Positions 8,221 to 15,744 of a stretch of DNA of 64,000 bases are shown here, piece after piece; position 1 is the stretch's first letter, and each line of letters starts with the position of its first letter. Origin of the DNA: Candidatus Eiseniibacteriota bacterium. Lineage in GTDB: Bacteria; Eisenbacteria; RBG-16-71-46. The notes beneath the pieces are model-generated. The model made no database searches. It had not been told where the DNA came from and saw nothing but the letters and a program-made list of their open reading frames with translations. A program made the position numbers and the translations under genes. The stretch lies in assembly GCA_041483195.1 (NCBI GenBank), contig JBGPFC010000009.1:1-64000 (forward strand), read 5' to 3'.

Positions 8221-9205
8221 GCGCCATGCCGTCGGACTCCTGCGCCGTGAGGCCGTAGCGACGCAGCTTCTTGAGCAGGCCCTGCCGCGAGAGGCCGAGC
8301 GAACGGGCCGCCTGCGACTTGTTCCAGCGCGCGCCGTCGAGTGCCTCGCGCAGGCGGCGCTCCTCGAGCGCGCGGGTCTCGGCGTGCAGCCCGCGCGCCT
8401 CCGGCGTCCCGGGCAGGAGCGGCTGGTCGGGCCAGTGCTCGAGCCCGACCACCGCGCGCGCGCCTGCGACGCGCACCGCATACGCGCAACCGTTCGAGAG
8501 CTCCCGTACGTTCCCGGGCCACGGGTAGCGCATCAGGTGAGCGATCAGCCGCGGATCGAGGGCGGGCGGCGGCGCGCCGCAGGTGGCCGCCGCGCGCGCG
8601 AGGAACGCGCGCGCGAGCAGCAACACGTCCTCGCCGCGCTCGCGCAAGGCCGGAAGCACGAGCCGCACGGCGTTGAGGCGGTAGTAGAGATCGGCGCGGA
8701 ATGTGCCCGCCCCGACCGCCTGGTCGAGGGTGCGGTGGGTCGCGGAGACCACGCGCACGTCGAGATGGCGGACGCGCGTGTCGCCCACCCGCCGCGCCTC
8801 ACCCTCCTGCAGCACGCGCAGCAACTTCATCTGGAGCAGCGCGCTCGCATCTCCGATCTCGTCGAGGAAGAGCGTGCCATGGTCGGCGGCCTCGAACAGC
8901 CCGGCGCGGTCGGCCACCGCTCCGGTGAACGCGCCCCGGCTGTGACCGAACAGCTCGCTCTCGATCAGCGTGTCGGGGGTCGCACCGCAATTGTGCGCGA
9001 CGAATTCCGCGCGGCGACGCGGGCTGAGCGTGTGGACCGCCCGCGCGACCAGCTCCTTTCCGGTCCCGGTTTCGCCCAGCACCACCACCGGGAGCTCGCT
9101 CTCCGCCACCCGCGGGAGCGCGCGGCACAGCTCACGCCAGGCTTGCGATTCTCCAAGCATCTCGGGCGGCAACCGCCGCCCCGCATCCCGACTCTCGCGT
9201 TCCAT
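8195..9205 (-). CDS. Sigma54-dependent enhancer-binding protein (AAA+ plus Fis HTH) lacking an N-terminal sensor domain
   Basis: [45 protein letters not shown] and [11 protein letters not shown]. The AAA+ domain starts about 15 aa after the start codon. Confidence 0.93.
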
Positions 9206-9241
9206 CCCACCCTCCCGTCCCCGTACCGCCCGGAACGCCGC

Positions 9242-10255
9242 TCACGCCGCGATCCACTCGACGCCGCGCTCGCCGCTCGTGATCGTGCCGATCTCGAAAA
9301 CGGTTTCGCCGGCGGCGGTCAACTCGCCCGCCAGGGCGCGGGCCTCCTCGGGAGCGCTCACCACGATCATGCCGATGCCGAGGTTGAACGCGCTGCGCGC
9401 GTCGTCGATCGGCACCCCGCCGGCCTCGATCAGCCAGCGGAACAGCGGGGGCATGGTCCAGCTCGCGGCATCGATGCGCGCGCGGCATCCCGCCGGCAGC
9501 ACGCGCGGGAGATTCCCCGCGATCCCGCCGCCCGTGACGTGCGCCAGCGCGTGCACGCGGGCAAGCGCCGGCGTGAGCGCGCGCCCGTACCAGCGGTGGG
9601 GCGCCAGCAACGCGTCCATGACGCGTTCGCCGTTGCCGCGTGGAAGCGGAGCGCGGGGATCGATCCCAGCGCCGGCCAGCACCCGGCGGGCGAGTGAGTA
9701 ACCGTTGGTATGAAGCCCGGTGGAGGCCAGCCCGAGCACGCGATCGCCGACGCGAACCCGCTCGCCATCGATCAGGCGCTCGCGCTCCACCACTCCCAGC
9801 ATGCAGCCCGCGACGTCGACGACACCCGGCGCGTAGGTGTCGGGCATCTCCGCGGTCTCGCCTCCCAGCAGGACGGCGCCCACCTCGCGGCAGGCGCGGG
9901 CCATCCCCTCGACCGCCGCGAGCACGATCGCGGGATCGAGGCGCGCCTGCGCGACGTAGTCGAGAAACGCGAGCGGCCGCGCGCCGTGAACCAGGAGATC
10001 GTTCGCCCCGTGAAAGACGAGATCCGCAGCGGCGTCGCCCACCCGGCCGGCCTCGAGCGCCAGATGGAGCTTGGTCCCGACACCATCCATCGAGGCGGCG
10101 AGCAGCGCCCCCCCCGCCGGCCATTCCATCACTCCCGCGAAACCCTCGGCCGGACCCCTGAAGCCGTCGCCCCAGGTGGAACGCACCGCGCGGCCCAGCG
10201 CGGACTTGATCGCGTCGGAACGCGCGAGATCGACTCCGGCTTCGCGGTAGCGCAT
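9242..10255 (-). CDS. purM: Phosphoribosylformylglycinamidine cyclo-ligase
   Basis: YREAGVD, DGVGTKL, GGETAEMP, GLHTNGYSL, HVTGGG and FNLGIGM motifs. TGATG overlap with the HD-GYP stop. Confidence 0.97.
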   Translation of the reverse strand: MRYREAGVDLARSDAIKSALGRAVRSTWGDGFRGPAEGFAGVMEWPAGGALLAASMDGVGTKLHLALEAGRVGDAAADLVFHGANDLLVHGARPLAFLDYVAQARLDPAIVLAAVEGMARACREVGAVLLGGETAEMPDTYAPGVVDVAGCMLGVVERERLIDGERVRVGDRVLGLASTGLHTNGYSLARRVLAGAGIDPRAPLPRGNGERVMDALLAPHRWYGRALTPALARVHALAHVTGGGIAGNLPRVLPAGCRARIDAASWTMPPLFRWLIEAGGVPIDDARSAFNLGIGMIVVSAPEEARALAGELTAAGETVFEIGTITSGERGVEWIAA

Positions 10256-11613
10256 CAGCCTCGCGCCCGGAGCGGCTTGATGCGCAGCAGCAGCAGGTCC
10301 TCGCTGCTCGGGCTCGGGATGAGTGGAAACTGCCCGGCGGCATGGAGCCGCAGCAGGCACTCGACCACGCCCTCGTCGAATTGGGTGCCGGCCCCGCGCT
10401 TCAATTCCTGGAGCGCGGCCTGCAGCGACAGCGCGCGACGATACGGCCGATCCGAGGTCATCGCGTCGAATGCGTCGCTCACGTTCAGGATGCGCGCGCC
10501 GAGCGGCACGTCGGCGGCCTTGAGCCCGAACGGGTAACCCTGCCCGTCGGGGCGCTCGTGATGACTGCGCACGATCTCGGCCGCCCGGCGCAGCGCCCGC
10601 ACCCGCGCCACGATCTCCGCCCCCGCCGCCGGATGCGCACGCAGCGTGCGCTGCTCCTCATGCGAGAGCGTTCCCGGCTTCTGGAGAATGTGCTGGTGCT
10701 GGGGCCCGATCTTCCCCAGATCGTGCACCAGCGCCGCGTACTCGACCTCCTCGACCTCGTGCTCGGGAAGCCGCATGCCGCGCGCGAGACGCACCGCGTA
10801 CTGCGAGACTCGCACCGAGTGGTGCCGCGTGTACGGGTCGATCTCTTCGAGCACTTCGGTGAGCGCCCGCACGAAATCCTTGAGGTCTGACTTGATCTCG
10901 ACGTACAAGCCGAACGAATGCCGCGCGACCAGAAACGGGATGCCGAACAGCACGAGCGCCCACGGCCCGGTGCTGACGTAAACGACGACCACCAGGGTCC
11001 CGAGCGCGATGAAAGACAGATGATGGAGGATCCCTCGCAGGAAGTTGCTCTGCCACACCCGCCACGGGCTGGGGCCGGAGGTGAGCCCGATCACGGTGGA
11101 GACCATCACGGAGTTGGCGATGAAGTAGGCCCCGCCGCAGCCCAGCAGGGCGGGGATGTCCCGCGGGAACGCGAGCGATCCCGCTCGTCCTCCCAGCGCA
11201 TGAAACGCCCAGCCACTCGCGAAGTAGGTCACCGTGAAATTGGCGAGATTGTGGATCACGCGCACGCGGGGCCGCCGCTGGATGAAGCCCTCGTTCACCG
11301 TGGTGCTGACCAGCGAGAGCCACGACGTATAGACCGGCCCCAGCACGACCAGGCAGGGCAGATCGAACACCCCGCTGGCGGTCGCGTAACCCCCGCTCGG
11401 CAGAGCGACCGGGCGCGCGTCGCCGAGCAGCATGAGCACCAGCACCGTGCCGAGCAGGAGCGGAGAGATCGGCCCCGCGCCGGGCGTGAATCGCGCCAGC
11501 AGCACGACCGCCGCCAGCAGCACGACGCCGTAGTACAGGCGGAACAATCTCGGGTGTAGGGATGGGGATGAACTCTTCAACGTCGCTCGATCGGGGGGCG
11601 CGGACTTCGACAT
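10255..11613 (-). CDS. Membrane-integral HD-GYP cyclic-dinucleotide phosphodiesterase
   Basis: About 7-8 hydrophobic segments followed by YTRHHS, HDLGKIG, HHERPDGQGYP and DAFDAMTSDRPYR. Start uncertain (GTG 11652, ATG 11613 or TTG 11580). Confidence 0.9.
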   Translation of the reverse strand: MSKSAPPDRATLKSSSPSLHPRLFRLYYGVVLLAAVVLLARFTPGAGPISPLLLGTVLVLMLLGDARPVALPSGGYATASGVFDLPCLVVLGPVYTSWLSLVSTTVNEGFIQRRPRVRVIHNLANFTVTYFASGWAFHALGGRAGSLAFPRDIPALLGCGGAYFIANSVMVSTVIGLTSGPSPWRVWQSNFLRGILHHLSFIALGTLVVVVYVSTGPWALVLFGIPFLVARHSFGLYVEIKSDLKDFVRALTEVLEEIDPYTRHHSVRVSQYAVRLARGMRLPEHEVEEVEYAALVHDLGKIGPQHQHILQKPGTLSHEEQRTLRAHPAAGAEIVARVRALRRAAEIVRSHHERPDGQGYPFGLKAADVPLGARILNVSDAFDAMTSDRPYRRALSLQAALQELKRGAGTQFDEGVVECLLRLHAAGQFPLIPSPSSEDLLLLRIKPLRARG

Positions 11614-11665
11614 GGAGGGAGGCACATCGCGAACGGAAGACGAGACCGACACCAGCTTCGGAGGT

Positions 11666-11689
11666 TCCCCGCGACCTAAGGCCGCGAGA
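11666..11689 (-). other. GC-rich stem-loop between the peptide ORF and the HD-GYP gene
   Basis: Minus strand TCTCGCGGCC-TTA-GGTCGCGGGGA, about 10 bp including G-U pairs, with no U-tract. Confidence 0.5.
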
Positions 11690-11703
11690 TCACGAGCCGC
11701 TGC

Positions 11704-11754
11704 TTACCAGCCGGCCTTGGTGAAGAAGTTCACGAGCTCGAGGATGTAGTCCAC
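11704..11754 (-). CDS. 16-aa small peptide MDYILELVNFFTKAGW
   Basis: GTG start 7 nt after AAGGAGGT (11762-11769); TAA stop; all 16 sense codons end in G or C. Confidence 0.75.
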   Translation of the reverse strand: MDYILELVNFFTKAGW

Positions 11755-11825
11755 GAAGCCCACCTCCTTTTGGAATTTCTCTGCGGGGGAACTGGATGAC
11801 TTCCCGAACAGGTGGGTCCGCTTCG

Positions 11826-12608
11826 CTACTCGAGGGTTGGCTTCGCTCCGCTGGCCTCCTGGGTCGATGCCGGTCTCAAGACATATTCGATTGGTTCTCG
11901 GGTCTGCAGCCCGCCCAGCACGCGATTGAGTGCCGCGAGTGTGGCGAGCGCTACGGCCTGCTGCGTATCCTGCTCCACGTTGCAGCATCCCACCAGCATT
12001 TTTTCGTGGCGATGGGCCAGCAGCGAGAGCCCCACCACCACCACGTCCTGCCTCGCGAAGCGGACGATATCGACGCCGGTCACGCTCAGCGCCCACTCGT
12101 CATCGAGGAATTCCTGGATGGCGGAGATGCTCGCCGCCGCGATCAGGGCGTGCGCCCCCTCACGCGTCGCGCTGCCCGAGGCGCTTCCCATGCGGGCGAT
12201 GCCCTTCCAGCGCAATTCCACCTGGGCCTGAGCCCTGGCCCCCGAGACGTAGACGTTGACGCTGCCGAAGCGCACGCGCTCCGCGTCGGATGCGGCGTGA
12301 GCCTCCGGCGCGTTCGGGGCGATGCGCTCGACCGCGGCGGGCGCCGGCCCGGGGCGGGTGTATGCCACCGAGACCACGCGATGATCGATGGGGCGGTTGA
12401 AGCGGGTGAGCAGCAGGGTCTGAACGTCGCGGACGATCTGCTTGGCGGGGCGGCCCGAAGTGGTGAGGACGTGCACCTCACGCACTTCTTCTCCTTCGGT
12501 CTGAACGCTGGCGCCTTCGACGTCGCGCAGCGTGCGGATCGCGGCTTCCACCTGCCTCGCCCAGGAGAGATGCGTCGCGTCGACGGCCACCCTGTCCTCC
12601 ATGCCCAT
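11826..12608 (-). CDS. Hypothetical two-domain cytoplasmic protein; C-terminal part resembles the LeuA allosteric (regulatory) domain
   Basis: N-terminal EVHVLTTSGRPAKQIVRDVQ domain, Pro/Ala linker, then a duplicated beta-beta-beta-alpha pattern ending DTQQAVALATLAALNRVL. GGAG SD before ATG 12608. Confidence 0.75.
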   Translation of the reverse strand: MGMEDRVAVDATHLSWARQVEAAIRTLRDVEGASVQTEGEEVREVHVLTTSGRPAKQIVRDVQTLLLTRFNRPIDHRVVSVAYTRPGPAPAAVERIAPNAPEAHAASDAERVRFGSVNVYVSGARAQAQVELRWKGIARMGSASGSATREGAHALIAAASISAIQEFLDDEWALSVTGVDIVRFARQDVVVVGLSLLAHRHEKMLVGCCNVEQDTQQAVALATLAALNRVLGGLQTREPIEYVLRPASTQEASGAKPTLE

Positions 12609-12627
12609 GGGAACTTTTCTCCGGGAA

Positions 12628-12636
12628 ATGCTATCA
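12628..12636 (-). promoter_or_regulatory. Putative extended -10 promoter for the cassette
   Basis: TGATAGCAT (TGn + TAGCAT) 19 nt upstream of ATG 12608, with a weak TAGCAA -35 18 nt upstream of the hexamer. Confidence 0.4.
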
Positions 12637-12654
12637 CACGCTCCAAGGCTGTTG

Positions 12655-13617
12655 CTACGACTCATCCTCGAAGATCGGCTCGAGGTCGAAGTGCACCATC
12701 CGGTGGAGCAGGGCGACCCGCTGCGTAATCTCCTCCGGGCCGGTTTCGACCAATCGCCGGGGGCTGAACCCCTCGATCGCGATCGAGGCCATGGCGGTGC
12801 CACAGGCCAGCGCCTGCCGCAGCGCCTCGCCGTCGCGGCGGCCGCAGCGCGCGAGCCAGCCCAGAAATCCGCCCGCGAACGAGTCGCCGGCCCCGGTCGG
12901 ATCGGTGAGCGCCTCCACCGGATAGGCGGGGGTGATGAACCGCTCGTCGCGCGATCGATAGAGCGCGCCGTGTTCGCCTTTCTTCACGATCACGGCGCGG
13001 GCGCCCTGCTCCAGCAGGCGGTCGGCGGCACGGACCAGCTGGGTCTCCCCCGCCAGCGCGCGGGCCTCTTCTTCGTTCAGCAGCGCGACGTCCACCTGGC
13101 GCAGAACCTCGAGGACGCGATCCGGCTTGCGTGCGATCCAGTAGTTCATCGTGTCTGAGAGCGTGAGGCGGGGCGAGTGCATCTGGCTCAGCACCTCGAG
13201 CTGCAGGTCCGGGTCGATGTTGGCGAGAAACACGAACGGGCTCGCGCGGTGCCGCTCGTCGAGCTTCGGATGAAAGGTGGAGAATACGTTGAGCTGGGTC
13301 TCGAGGGTGTGGGCGTGCCCGAGCTCGACGTTGTACTCGCCGCGCCATCGGAACGTGCGGCCGGCCGCGGTTTCGAGGCCCCCCAAGTCCACGCCCCTGC
13401 CCTCGAACACGCCGCGATGACCAGCCGGGAAGTCTTCCCCCACCACCGCCACCAGACGCACCGGCGCGAAATGGCTGGCCGAGAGCGAAAAGTACGAGGC
13501 CGAGCCACCGAGCGCCTCGTCCGCCGCCCCGAACGGCGTGCGCACCGAGTCCAGCGCGACCGACCCCACCACCACGATCTCGCGCGCGGCGCTCGCGTCC
13601 CGCTCCGCGTGCCTCAC
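12655..13617 (-). CDS. PfkB-family carbohydrate/nucleoside kinase
   Basis: VVGSVALD, LGGSASY, NEEEA, KKGEHG and DPTGAGDSFAGG motifs. GTG overlaps argS stop. Confidence 0.92.
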   Translation of the reverse strand: MRHAERDASAAREIVVVGSVALDSVRTPFGAADEALGGSASYFSLSASHFAPVRLVAVVGEDFPAGHRGVFEGRGVDLGGLETAAGRTFRWRGEYNVELGHAHTLETQLNVFSTFHPKLDERHRASPFVFLANIDPDLQLEVLSQMHSPRLTLSDTMNYWIARKPDRVLEVLRQVDVALLNEEEARALAGETQLVRAADRLLEQGARAVIVKKGEHGALYRSRDERFITPAYPVEALTDPTGAGDSFAGGFLGWLARCGRRDGEALRQALACGTAMASIAIEGFSPRRLVETGPEEITQRVALLHRMVHFDLEPIFEDES

Positions 13618-15341
13618 GTCACGCTCTCCGTCGCGCGCGACATGCGCTCCGGTGCGGATACGCCCATCAACGCGAGCCCGTTCCGCAGCACGATCCGCGC
13701 GGCTTCGGCGAGCCGCAGCCGCGCGCGCGACCGCGCGACGTCGTCCGAGACCACGCGGCACGCGTGATAGAAGCGGTGAAAGGCCGCGGCCGTCTCGAGC
13801 AGGTAGGCCGGGACGCGGTGCGGCTCGCGCGCGAACGCCGCGCCCCGAACCACCTCGGGAAAAGCGGCGAGCTTGCGAATCAGCGCGATCTCCTCGGCGG
13901 CTCCATGGGACGCATCGCCGTCGGCCGGCTCCAGGCCGCGCTCCGACGCGAAGCGCAGGATCGACGCGATGCGGGCGTGCGCGTACTGCACGTAGTATGC
14001 GGGATTCTCGTCGTTCTGCCGCCGCGCGAGGTCGAGGTCGAAGTCGAGGTGAGCGTTGGTCGAACGCATCAGGAAGAAGAATTTCGCGCAATCGGACCCG
14101 ATATCGTCCATCAGATCGCGCAACGAGACGAATTCGCCGGCCCGCTTGCTCATCTTCACCGGCGCGCCTCCCGACATCAGGTTGACCTGCTGGACGATCA
14201 GCACCTCGAGAAAGTCGGGCTCGAGCCCGAGCGCCTGGAGCGCGGCCTTCATGCGCGGCACGTAACCGTGATGATCGGGCCCCCACAGGTCGATCGCGTG
14301 CCGGAATCCTCGCCCGTGCTTGTCGCGGTGGTAGGCGATATCGGGCAACAGATAGGTCGGGGCGCCGTTGCTCTTCACGATCACGCGGTCCAGGTCGTCG
14401 CCGAAGCGTGCCGTGCGGAGGAAGGTCGCGGGCTCGAGTCCGACGTCGGCATCCTCCGGCGCCGGCGGGCGGTCCCCGGACCACGCCTCGGGCTGGCGCG
14501 CGCGGTAGACCATGCCCCGCCCTTCCAGCTCGGCGAGCGTCGCGGCCACCGCGCCCGATGCGTGCAGCTCGGACTCGCGAAACCAGCGCGAGAACTCCGC
14601 GCCGTATTCCGCCAGGTCGCGGCGCTGCCATTCGAGCACGCGGTCGAGCGCCCGGTCGCGGAACCAGTGGCCGCCCTCCGGGCGATCGAGCGCGGCCCGG
14701 GCATCGGTCTCCGGGAGCGTCGCGGCGAGATCGCGAACGTACTCCCCCCGATAACCGTTCTCGGGAACGGGTCGCGGAATTCCCACGCGCTCCGCGAAAC
14801 GCGCGGCCATCGACTCGCCGAGCAGGTCGGCCTGATTCCCGGCGTCGTTCACGTAGAACTCGCCTTCGGCATGGTGCCCGGTCGCGTTGAGCAGGCGCAC
14901 GAGCGCCGCCCCGACCGCCGCCGCGCGCGCGCTCACGACGTTGAGCGGTCCGGTCGGATTGGCACTCACGTACTCGACCAGCATCCTCGAGCCACCGGCG
15001 TGATCCGCCTCGCCGAAGCGATCGCCGGCCCGCGCGATGACGGCGGGCAGGCGATCGAGGAAGGCCGCGCTGTACCGGAAATTGATGAACCCCGGGCCGG
15101 CGACCTCGACGCTCGAGAACAGAGCGGGGTCGAGCGGAAACGCGGCCGACAGCGACTGGGCCAGGGCGCGCGGCGGGCGCCCGGCCTCGCGCGCGAGCAG
15201 CAGCGCGAGGTTGGTGGTCCAGTCGCCGTGTCCGGCTTCGCGCGGCACCGCGAGCTCGAGCTTCGCGAGTCGCCCGGGATCCCAGAGTTCCACGCGCTTC
15301 AGCGCATCGGCGAATCCGTCAGTCAGCGCTTTCCAGACCAA
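13614..15341 (-). CDS. argS: Arginine--tRNA ligase
   Basis: AGPGFINF, EYVSANPTGPL, DIAYH, GPDHHGY, KMSKRAG and YVQYAHAR motifs. TTG start with GAGGAG SD. HIGH site reads NVVS. Confidence 0.95.
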   Translation of the reverse strand: MVWKALTDGFADALKRVELWDPGRLAKLELAVPREAGHGDWTTNLALLLAREAGRPPRALAQSLSAAFPLDPALFSSVEVAGPGFINFRYSAAFLDRLPAVIARAGDRFGEADHAGGSRMLVEYVSANPTGPLNVVSARAAAVGAALVRLLNATGHHAEGEFYVNDAGNQADLLGESMAARFAERVGIPRPVPENGYRGEYVRDLAATLPETDARAALDRPEGGHWFRDRALDRVLEWQRRDLAEYGAEFSRWFRESELHASGAVAATLAELEGRGMVYRARQPEAWSGDRPPAPEDADVGLEPATFLRTARFGDDLDRVIVKSNGAPTYLLPDIAYHRDKHGRGFRHAIDLWGPDHHGYVPRMKAALQALGLEPDFLEVLIVQQVNLMSGGAPVKMSKRAGEFVSLRDLMDDIGSDCAKFFFLMRSTNAHLDFDLDLARRQNDENPAYYVQYAHARIASILRFASERGLEPADGDASHGAAEEIALIRKLAAFPEVVRGAAFAREPHRVPAYLLETAAAFHRFYHACRVVSDDVARSRARLRLAEAARIVLRNGLALMGVSAPERMSRATESVT

Positions 15342-15744
15342 GGTCCAGGCTCCTCGCGTCACCCCACAGGCGATCGAGCATGTAGTACTCGCGGGTCTTC
15401 TCGTGGAAGACGTGGACCACGACCTCGACGTAATCGAGCAGCACCCAGCGCCGTCCTTCGTATCCCTCGACGTGCCAGGCACGCGCGCCGCGTTCCCGCA
15501 ACTTGTCCTCGACCGCCTCCGCCACCGCCTTCACCTGCACCGCGCTCGATGCCGAACAGATCAGGAAATAATCGCACACGCCGCCCAGCTCACGCAGGTC
15601 GAGGGCCACCGGATCGCTCGCCTTCTTGCCGACGGCTGCGGCCGCGGCGATCCGGACGATCTCGACCGCGGTGGGCGGCGCCGGCGCGCGGGAGCGTCCG
15701 CTGCCGGTCGCGGCCTCGGGGCGATGATGGACGCGCGGCGTCAA
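15319..15744 (-). CDS. rsfS: Ribosome silencing factor
   Basis: KKASD, DYFLICS, EG..WVLLDY and REYYMLDRLW motifs. Probable TTG start overlapping the upstream stop. Confidence 0.93.
   Translation of the reverse strand: MTPRVHHRPEAATGSGRSRAPAPPTAVEIVRIAAAAAVGKKASDPVALDLRELGGVCDYFLICSASSAVQVKAVAEAVEDKLRERGARAWHVEGYEGRRWVLLDYVEVVVHVFHEKTREYYMLDRLWGDARSLDLGLESAD

Follow-up and report, generated by a model that had tools for sequence, protein, structure and literature searches.

Gene organization of the locus

The stretch of DNA analysed here (hereafter, the window) comprises 64,000 nucleotides (nt) of contig JBGPFC010000009.1, from a Candidatus Eiseniibacteriota bacterium, and holds a module of three genes: gene A, a micropeptide open reading frame (ORF), and gene H, which encodes a predicted membrane protein with an HD-GYP domain. 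A preliminary description of this region had pointed out that the three genes are co-oriented, and all of them are indeed read on the minus strand, in the order argS, pfkB-family kinase, A, 16-codon ORF, H, and purM (Table 1). According to the comparative data presented below, this locus appears to be the Eisenbacteria form of a multi-phylum operon core that consists of a leader RNA, a micropeptide, and a MASE9-HD-GYP protein, and that is usually preceded by A.

Table 1. Position of the genes and RNA elements of the locus in the window.
Feature	Position	Strand	Description
Gene A	11826..12608	-	ATG 12608 to TAG 11826; 260 amino acids, cytoplasmic, two domains
Micropeptide ORF	11704..11754	-	GTG 11754 to TAA 11704; 16 codons + TAA; (M)DYILELVNFFTKAGW
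Gene H	10255..11613	-	ATG 11613 to TGA 10255; 452 amino acids; GTG 11652 as alternative start
P1 5' arm (U-GAGACCGGCAUC)	11866..11878	-	Inside the last codons of A
P1 3' arm (GGUGUCGGUCUC-G)	11641..11653	-	50 nt past the peptide stop, 28 nt before the H ATG
P1b 5' strand AGGAGG	11855..11860	-	Pairs with CCUCC 11660-11664
P1b 3' strand CCUCC	11660..11664	-	Partner of AGGAGG 11855-11860
Leader motif 1 AGCGGAGCG	11844..11852	-	Invariant columns in two alignments
Leader motif 2 AGCGAAGCG	11819..11827	-	Overlaps the TAG stop of A
Anti-Shine-Dalgarno strand CCCACCU (P3 5' strand)	11810..11816	-	Pairs with AGGUGGG of the peptide Shine-Dalgarno sequence
Micropeptide Shine-Dalgarno region AAAGGAGGUGGG	11759..11770	-	P3 3' strand
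argS	13614-15482	-	Flanking gene
pfkB-family kinase	about 12655-13620	-	Flanking gene
purM	9242..10255	-	TIGR00878 at 9.3e-85; start overlaps the H stop (TGATG)

The micropeptide gene

The ORF located between A and H translates into VDYILELVNFFTKAGW, with the tail KAGW, and its start codon is preceded by AAAGGAGGTG, in which GGAGG occupies positions 11767-11763. The Shine-Dalgarno (SD) 9-mer AAGGAGGTG is present three times in the window against 0.12 expected occurrences, and counting this SD sequence among the strongest ones of the window, as had been done before, is therefore fair. Of 36 Eisenbacteria loci, 32 have an SD-led ORF ending in G-W-stop in the gap that separates A from H, with AGGAGGT upstream of the start in 27 of those 32. 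When the remaining gaps were inspected by eye, variants ending in RGHW or RAGWGPGGP were recognized, and none in locus L023.

In other phyla, the gap between A and H contains an SD-led ORF of 24-29 codons, such as MSKLFKAISVLVTLVLAGGATFKW or MKRIVLLLSSLAALVLGGGASLRW. Its product holds an N-terminal end rich in Lys and Arg, followed by ~16 hydrophobic residues and by the sequence LAGGAxx[KR][WILM]. An Armatimonadota variant, M[SK]RLxKxLxGLAxLAAxAGxxWAIWPP, was recognized by eye. The tails that follow LAGGA have 4-7 residues, including a Trp in 37 of 56 cases and a Lys or Arg in 47 of 56, and some of them add one to three residues past the Trp (WGW, WG, RLGP, WTEF). Judging from three kinds of evidence, the micropeptide is a real coding gene. 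First, the codon-position entropy is 11.4/5.1/15.5 at positions 1/2/3 in 15 Eisenbacteria ORFs of 16 codons, and 23.0/16.0/36.2 in 26 ORFs from other phyla. Second, the synonymous fraction of the ORFs from other phyla is 0.33 in frame and 0.06-0.075 out of frame. Third, peptide length changes by whole codons, with the SD sequence and the start retained.

The peptide encoded in the window is predicted to form an amphipathic helix, with a hydrophobic moment of 0.54 that is reached by 1.2% of shuffled sequences. It carries two acidic residues (D2 and E6), and shows no basic N-terminal end, no signal-like N-terminal region, and no hydrophobic core long enough for export. A single membrane-spanning helix is a feature of the forms of 24-29 amino acids from the other phyla, and not of this 16-residue form. 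Searches of 10 micropeptides against Pfam and NCBIfam assigned them to no family, and yielded only sub-threshold, signal-peptide-like matches, which fall solely on the signal regions of the Phr and NprX pheromone precursors.

In one Eisenbacteria family, designated f3 (L027:3762-3911, L029:4920-5066, and L030:3817-3951), the peptide is 45-50 amino acids long and contains three internal DGK[AG]GW repeats separated by acidic linkers. The f3 peptide resembles a multi-copy motif or a multi-core precursor. A complex prediction carried out with H, A, and the 45-residue peptide of L030 gave a score of 0.00, which speaks neither for nor against binding.

A structured leader RNA that encloses the micropeptide gene

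An inverted repeat was seen at both sides of the micropeptide gene, with GAGACCGACAUC in the last codons of A (coding for LRPTS) and GAUGUCGGUCUC before H. When the alignment of 25 Eisenbacteria loci was folded with RNAalifold, these sequences formed a helix (P1) of 13 pairs, in which 96% of the cells of the alignment are paired and five pairs show double changes. One position of this helix exhibits A-U, G-C, U-A, and G.U. The adjacent helix P1b shows compensatory (double) changes in all of its four pairs, with 88% of cells paired, and P3, which pairs the SD sequence of the peptide with an anti-SD strand, consists of seven pairs (88.5% paired), two of them with compensatory changes. In P2, the GC dinucleotides of leader motif 2 pair with those of motif 1, leaving a GGA/GAA internal loop. 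This helix joins two invariant AGCGRAGCG motifs and is 98-100% paired and almost invariant, so that it receives no support from covariation.

Taking P1, P1b, P2, and P3 together, 93.4% of cells are paired, compared to 34-49% when the partners are slid, and the 11 pairs with compensatory changes were reached by none of 500 shuffles. The single-sequence folding energy of the leader is not unusual (z -0.40), and the case for its structure is thus a comparative one. According to these data, the region is predicted to fold into a new structured RNA of ~240 nt, in which P1 joins the 3' end of A to the 5' untranslated region of H and encloses the peptide cistron. Inside the domain closed by P1, the SD sequence of the peptide is paired with the anti-SD strand in this predicted fold, and much of P3, being nearly invariant, receives little support from covariation.

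Two 12-nt inverted repeats placed around a 210-nt segment that holds an SD sequence and a small ORF could also delimit an invertible switch that operates on the DNA instead of an RNA helix, and compensatory changes would equally keep two recombination sites identical. This explanation is extremely unlikely. The mismatches of the P1 arms are of the G.U type in 21 cases and of the A.C type in only three when read on the sense strand, which favours an RNA made from this strand over a DNA inverted repeat, and one of the arms lies inside the coding sequence of A. Moreover, no recombinase gene (nor any exporter or peptidase gene) was found in the conserved block, where the flanking genes are pfkB, purM, and argS. 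Contigs of the DNA runs X1 and X2 span the segment in the orientation of the window, and no strand-changing joint was detected in four DNA runs, bearing in mind that contigs can miss rare forms. Contigs of two further DNA runs, X4 and X5, break inside the leader (window positions 11729-11849 and 11769-11923) at a depth of 5-7, probably due to coverage or strain variation.

This architecture recurs in other phyla, where the arms have other sequences (UGGGCCAACG/CGUUGGCCCA, GAAACCGGCA/UGUCGGUUUC, UGGGUCAGCG/CGCUGACCCA, and AAGACCGGCG/CGCCGGUCUU). As the cross-phylum MAFFT alignment misaligned the 5' arm, P1 was tested instead with a column-anchored script. With the 3' arm fixed by its alignment column, a perfect upstream complement (10/10) exists in 20 of 45 loci, and one of at least nine positions in 37 of 45; the controls gave 1/45 for the reversed arm and 0/45 for a shifted 10-mer. 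The leaders of all phyla share GAGCGGAGCGG and UAGCGG. In 55 leaders from other phyla, AGCGG occurs 141 times against 8.2 expected, a 17-fold excess, and each leader holds three to five copies of AGCG[GA]. For 12 Coriobacteriia leaders, RNAalifold returned P1, a helix that uses the second AGCGG, a hairpin with a UAGCGG loop, and a further helix that pairs GAGAAGAC with GUCUUCUC between the SD sequence and the AUG.

The position of the helix relative to the three cistrons is also well defined. In 37 loci from other phyla, the median distance is 10 nt from the stop of A to the 5' arm, 14 nt (range 2-28) from the peptide stop to the 3' arm, and 26 nt from the end of the 3' arm to the start of H. 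For Eisenbacteria, the last codons of A contain the 5' arm, and 37-79 nt separate the peptide stop from the 3' arm. A ribosome finishing the ORF that precedes either arm would hence reach this arm or come close to it, which is the basis of the coupling model proposed below.

Regarding known RNA families, Rfam 15 gave no match at E<=10 in positions 10000-13000 of the window, nor at E<=1 in the gap between A and H of eight loci from other phyla. A pattern built on the two leader motifs has a single match in the genome, at the leader of the window. The covariance model R1, derived from the Eisenbacteria leaders, kept four base pairs and is mostly a sequence profile. It found the expected site in Sumerlaeota locus L078 (E 6.5e-6) and in Desulfosporosinus loci (E 2e-3 to 5e-3), and several of its 31 matches at E<=1 lie elsewhere than in the leader.

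The MASE9-type HD-GYP protein H

The protein H matches HD_5 (PF13487) with 125 bits, well above the cut-off of 27.2 (E 3.4e-36), and conserves intact HDLGK and HHERPDGQGYP sequences, whose columns are invariant in 34 homologues. The N-terminal domain of the window protein has no match to Pfam MASE9 at E<=0.01; MASE9 (PF20972) was recognized in 28 of the 34 homologues aligned over their full length, with a best value of 6.8e-12. On the basis of these sequence features, H is a predicted cyclic di-GMP (c-di-GMP) phosphodiesterase of the MASE9-HD-GYP family.

The AlphaFold2 (AF2) model of H, with a predicted local distance difference test (pLDDT) value of 88, shows about eight N-terminal helices, some of them short, before the catalytic domain (residues 21-45, 51-65, 81-91, 93-111, 116-139, 153-179, 183-192, 195-215, and 224-258). 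Together with the HD and HHExxDGxGYP motifs, this model bears out the initial view of H as a protein with seven to eight transmembrane segments and an intact HD-GYP domain. In the available part of the study by Galperin and Chou (bioRxiv 10.1101/2021.11.05.467447), where TM1467 and HdgA are named, MASE9 is defined as a domain with ~8 segments in the membrane, two of which are not long enough to traverse it, whose ligand is probably bound within the membrane. The predicted model of H fits this arrangement of segments.

A start-like codon (RTG or TTG) is present inside the 3' arm of P1 (positions 11650-11652 of the window and the equivalents in L002-L036), being ATG, GTG, or TTG in 24 of 28 loci. 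Its use as the start of H was rejected, since an open reading frame joins it to H in just 7 of the 28 loci. A coupled second upstream ORF starting from the same codon was rejected as trivial, as an RTGA overlap with the first H start ends this ORF in 8 of the 20 off-frame loci and the third frame, taken as a control, shows such an ending in 10 of the 20.

A number of Actinobacterial loci (L044, L046, L047, L051, L053-L055, L057, L059, L060, L072, L075, L077, L079, and L082) hold a second, more divergent HD-GYP paralogue directly 3' of H. This tandem is similar to the hdgA/hdgB pair of Streptomyces venezuelae, about which the available part of PMC6205966 describes nothing beyond the pair itself.

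The protein A

The 260-residue product of A had been presented as a protein of unknown nature, and it remains below the threshold of all Pfam and NCBIfam families. It had also been labelled as LeuA-like, a name that is appropriate for its fold and not for its sequence. LeuA_dimer (PF08502) does not match A, which has no Pfam match at E<=0.1, and a search of the PDB with the A profile returned nothing below E 0.09. The ESM Atlas returned only clusters named 'hypothetical' or 'LeuA allosteric', and a single UniRef record of an A homologue bears the name of the LeuA regulatory domain. In the AF2 model (pLDDT 89, built on 64 sequences), residues 110-232 are predicted to adopt the fold of the regulatory domain of LeuA and citramalate synthase, with two beta-beta-beta-alpha units. 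This segment superposes on citramalate synthase 3f6g_B with Z 9.9 and a root-mean-square deviation of 2.8 over 109 amino acids, and on Mycobacterium tuberculosis LeuA 3fig_A with Z 8.2, and the Foldseek matches of A range from E 1.8e-5 (3hps_B) to 2.7e-4. Residues 11-83 are ferredoxin-like (alpha-beta-beta-alpha-beta) and match the C-terminal domains of cation diffusion facilitator transporters, EscJ/PrgK ring modules, and others at Z 8-9, which is not diagnostic.

The A family comprises 1366 representatives at E<=1e-3 and 491 at E<=1e-10, and its conserved residues include K56, R60, D61, R111, G141, G145, N228, and R229. In most relatives, A stops ~7 nt past the 5' arm of P1. In the genus of the window, A bears a C-terminal extension, its coding sequence therefore running through P1b and the first AGCGGAGCG motif (window positions 11819-11860), and its TAG stop lies inside the second AGCGG-type motif.

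Distribution and co-occurrence of the components

The Eisenbacteria data set consists of 41 genomes, namely that of the window and 40 relatives up to the class level, 27 of them at least 90% complete (the tally includes G026, a genome flagged as unpublished). A is present in 40 of the 41 genomes and in 27 of the 27 most complete ones. It is followed by H in 20 of 20 loci of the same family and lies adjacent to it in 16 of 16 more distant loci, where pfkB is upstream in 13 and purM downstream in 15. The order pfkB-A-peptide-H-purM is thus retained across the class. Owing to this synteny and to the conservation of A, H, and the peptide, the block is ancient and class-wide, and the genes, at first described as inserted among housekeeping genes, are not a recent insertion.

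The profile of distant A members revealed relatives in 589 of 600 candidate stretches of a species-representative genome set, and the best 80 of them (L037-L116) were used as the A loci of other phyla. They belong to Bacillota (Desulfosporosinus, Thermincola, Moorella, Thermoanaerobacter, Symbiobacterium, and others), Coriobacteriia and other Actinomycetota, Sumerlaeota, and Armatimonadota. An H homologue, with an N-terminal domain called MASE9 by Pfam, is encoded 250-450 nt downstream of A on the same strand in 64 of these 80 loci; in nine of the 16 loci without H, the contig ends within 550 nt of A. The peptide was detected in 56 of the 80 loci with a strict regular expression, and further variants were recognized by eye.

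Sampling by the other components led to a similar picture. Among 251 genomes drawn from the phylum to which a Desulfosporosinus genome (G041) belongs, 88 hold MASE9, and in the best 30 loci sampled in this way A lies upstream on the same strand in 24. The peptide accompanies 21 of these 24 loci and none of the six without A. Among 80 metagenome loci sampled with the RNA pattern, 54 hold a family-like peptide ORF that starts 2-15 nt past the SD sequence, and, where the flank is long enough, 37 of 45 are preceded by A and 40 of 44 are followed by H. The remaining 26 loci are mostly chance matches, with A in two and H in two. The eight A-less loci (L154, L155, L165, L171, L176, L187, L209, and L220) share one peptide subfamily (MKKxxVRxxA...LLLAGGAG...), and in L176 the downstream gene encodes a MASE9-HD-GYP protein and the upstream gene a product without a Pfam family. 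These distributions point to a core composed of the RNA, the peptide, and H, of which A is a frequent and not an obligatory companion.

The preliminary description had staked its proposal in part on the co-occurrence of the three parts in other genomes and on the conservation of a small ORF at this position. The co-occurrence held when loci were sampled by A, by MASE9, and by the RNA pattern. Conservation of a small ORF with a G-W or W ending was likewise seen, both in the 32 Eisenbacteria loci mentioned above and in several other phyla.

The genes that surround the core differ among phyla. Outside Eisenbacteria, the gene for the ribosome hibernation factor, hpf, is the direct upstream neighbour of A in 49 of the 80 loci, at a distance of about 150-300 nt, and a gene for a DUF5317 membrane protein follows H in 53 of 80. 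Neither of them is present in 16 extended Eisenbacteria loci, and DUF5317 was found in none of the 41 Eisenbacteria genomes. Moorella exhibits the arrangement hpf-A-secA without peptide, RNA motif, or H. Upstream of hpf, the Rfam cspA thermoregulator family matches L040:2653-3050 with 86 bits, above the gathering score, and weakly L049:1745-1818 and L085:1212-1513. In the window, purM is probably a co-translated context gene and not part of the module in other phyla. The TGA of H and the ATG of purM overlap in the sequence TGATG (10257-10253), by which this gene for purine synthesis seems to be translationally coupled to the c-di-GMP phosphodiesterase H. The suggestion that the module possesses its own promoter found no support, as a sigma-70 consensus scan of positions 9200-15600 gave no promoter-like site with a consensus that is uninformative for this phylum.

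Proposed mechanism and function of the micropeptide

To integrate these observations, it is proposed, with a probability of roughly 0.45, that the peptide is a membrane-associated partner of MASE9 that tunes the phosphodiesterase, and that its synthesis is gated by the RNA, which also links it to the translation of A and H. The peptide, amphipathic in the window and a single hydrophobic helix elsewhere, would associate with the MASE9 domain and modulate the phosphodiesterase in a manner parallel to that of MgrB or SafA on PhoQ. The RNA would keep the translation of the peptide off until P1 melts. Ribosomes finishing A, at whose end, or ~10 nt past it, the 5' arm is located, would melt P1, and those finishing the peptide, with a stop 14-50 nt before the 3' arm, would hold P1 open and pass to H, so that the order and the ratio in which A, the peptide, and H are produced would be fixed. 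The AGCGG repeats, which are invariant, form a putative site for a factor acting in trans (a small ligand or a protein, possibly A), which would add a signal input and may open the SD sequence. The protein A, with a fold of the amino-acid-sensor type, could supply a cytoplasmic metabolic input.

Several observations weigh against this proposal. With 16 amino acids, two of them acidic, the peptide of the window cannot span a membrane, and the peptides of family f3 look soluble, acidic, and repeated, which is more in line with a motif repeated for binding or processing than with a membrane helix. The strongest conservation of the peptide falls on the last four to eight residues, beside the stop ([KR]AGW in Eisenbacteria and xx[KR][WILM] elsewhere), as would be expected if it were a regulatory arrest peptide. 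The evidence for coupling consists of distances, from which its consequence for translation is inferred, and a look for RNA runs that contain the locus gave none. Finally, MASE9-HD-GYP loci without A and without peptide exist (L145 and L150), so MASE9 does not need either of them, and the eight of 45 RNA-sampled loci with no A within their upstream flank indicate that the RNA does not need A in cis.

As the peptide cistron lies inside a conserved structured RNA, translational control is at least as likely as signalling. The small ORF might then be a regulatory upstream ORF whose translation, or stalling at the stop codon, remodels the RNA and sets the expression of H, with the released peptide being functionless. 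TnaC, with 24 amino acids, and the macrolide leader peptides offer comparable cases. In addition to the C-terminal conservation just mentioned, the sequestered SD sequence fits this role, as does the stop codon, since its proximity to the 3' arm means that a terminating ribosome would unwind P1. A chain of 16-29 amino acids would also still be within the exit tunnel at termination. Nevertheless, a Lys/Arg-rich end and a hydrophobic helix kept across phyla are not expected of arrest peptides, the one to three extra residues past the Trp in several tails imply that the distance from the motif to the stop is not fixed, and the internal GK[AG]GW repeats of f3 would stall the ribosome prematurely if this motif were the arrest signal. 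A peptide that serves purely as a leader is considered unlikely.

A different emphasis falls on the RNA. The ~240-nt element, with the micropeptide gene that it encloses, may, tentatively, represent a class of cis-regulatory RNA that is new and spread over several phyla. It would act either as a riboswitch, with a ligand that is metabolic or related to c-di-GMP, or as an operator of A; that the arrangement of RNA and peptide is a new class in its own right is held with the same caution. If this were true, the locus would be a second-messenger switch gated by a peptide and an RNA, and would provide the first partners and a control logic for MASE9.

In the preliminary description, the locus had been compared to agr-type systems. 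A secreted and processed signal would require that the signal-like N-terminal part is cut after AGGA, and that the tail (TFKW, NIKWGW, or KAGW in the window) is sensed by MASE9 from the outside or inside the membrane, with DUF5317 as the processing enzyme where it is present. The peptides of the other phyla, with a signal-peptide-like organization and the small-residue site LAGGA before 4-7 residues, are compatible with this idea, to which the restriction of the sub-threshold matches to Phr/NprX signal regions, the frequent position of DUF5317 after H, and the three tandem copies of the tail motif in f3, reminiscent of multi-core precursors, also lend weight. The window fits it poorly. Its amphipathic, acidic peptide has neither a basic N-terminal end nor a core of export length, and the absence of a signal-like N-terminal region, together with that of DUF5317 from all the Eisenbacteria genomes, makes an agr-like signal less likely. 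The conserved block has no gene for export or processing, and the module is near-universal, single-copy, and syntenic, unlike strain-variable pheromone systems. Secretion, which agrees better with the phyla that hold DUF5317 than with the window, is accordingly judged quite unlikely, and an explanation outside all those named here is only slightly less so.

Under the proposal of a peptide partner gated by the RNA, MASE9, a widespread orphan membrane sensor, would gain three candidate inputs, all of them co-inherited: the micropeptide, A with its fold of the amino-acid-sensor type, and the structured RNA. The RNA element is a covarying one missing from Rfam and distributed in at least five phyla, with the unusual feature of a translated ORF within its closing helix. 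The neighbourhood of hpf outside Eisenbacteria suggests that growth arrest and the breakdown of c-di-GMP may be connected. Carriers include cultured and tractable anaerobes, such as Desulfosporosinus, Thermoanaerobacter, Thermincola, and Symbiobacterium.

Comparison with known systems

In the literature that was searched, neither the module nor the A family, the peptide, or the RNA turned up. In the main texts of two papers on RNA discovery, PMC11109978 and PMC5737381, the terms HD domain, phosphohydrolase, and c-di-GMP gave only unrelated mentions of c-di-GMP, and HD-GYP gave no match in that of PMC5737381. Among known systems, those closest to H are the MASE9-HD-GYP proteins, with TM1467 from Thermotoga maritima and HdgA (Vnz_24090) from S. 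venezuelae; H is homologous over its full length to proteins that match Pfam MASE9 and HD_5. The available portions of the accounts of TM1467 and HdgA (bioRxiv 10.1101/2021.11.05.467447 and PMC6205966) mention neither a protein encoded upstream nor a micropeptide nor a leader RNA.

The C-terminal domain of A (residues 110-232) superposes on the regulatory domain of LeuA and citramalate synthase (3f6g, 3f6h, 3fig, 3hps, and 1sr9). However, A lacks the catalytic TIM barrel of these enzymes, and carries this domain fused to a ferredoxin-like N-terminal domain.

The agr and RRNPP systems are peptide quorum-sensing systems in which, as here, a small peptide gene lies beside that of a membrane protein, and the precursors of other phyla are signal-peptide-like as well. 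In contrast, genes of the AgrB type or for an exporter are absent from the module, as are a kinase and an RRNPP receptor; the neighbour of the peptide is an HD-GYP enzyme, the module is single-copy and class-wide, and the peptide of the window lacks an export signal.

Concerning the RNA, the operons controlled by c-di-GMP riboswitches (GEMM-I and c-di-GMP-II) likewise present a structured RNA before genes for c-di-GMP turnover, but the locus has no match in Rfam 15 and its conserved nucleotides are different. In the MS2 coat-replicase 'Min Jou' interaction, a long-range RNA pairing couples neighbouring cistrons, and TnaC is a leader-peptide switch. The strands of P1 are similarly placed at the end of an upstream ORF and before a downstream gene, with a short ORF inside the regulatory RNA. 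The difference is that here two upstream ORFs each end beside one arm of the predicted helix, which would enclose a whole cistron together with the AGCGG loops.

MgrB and SafA, small membrane proteins that modulate the sensor enzyme PhoQ, are tiny hydrophobic or amphipathic peptides encoded beside a membrane sensor enzyme and co-inherited with it, as the micropeptide is with H. There is no relation in sequence, and the form found in the window is too short for the bilayer. Moreover, the candidate target is a c-di-GMP phosphodiesterase instead of a kinase, and a structured RNA surrounds the gene for the peptide. The module would combine two known kinds of regulation, the modulation of a sensor enzyme by a small protein and the control exerted by a structured leader.

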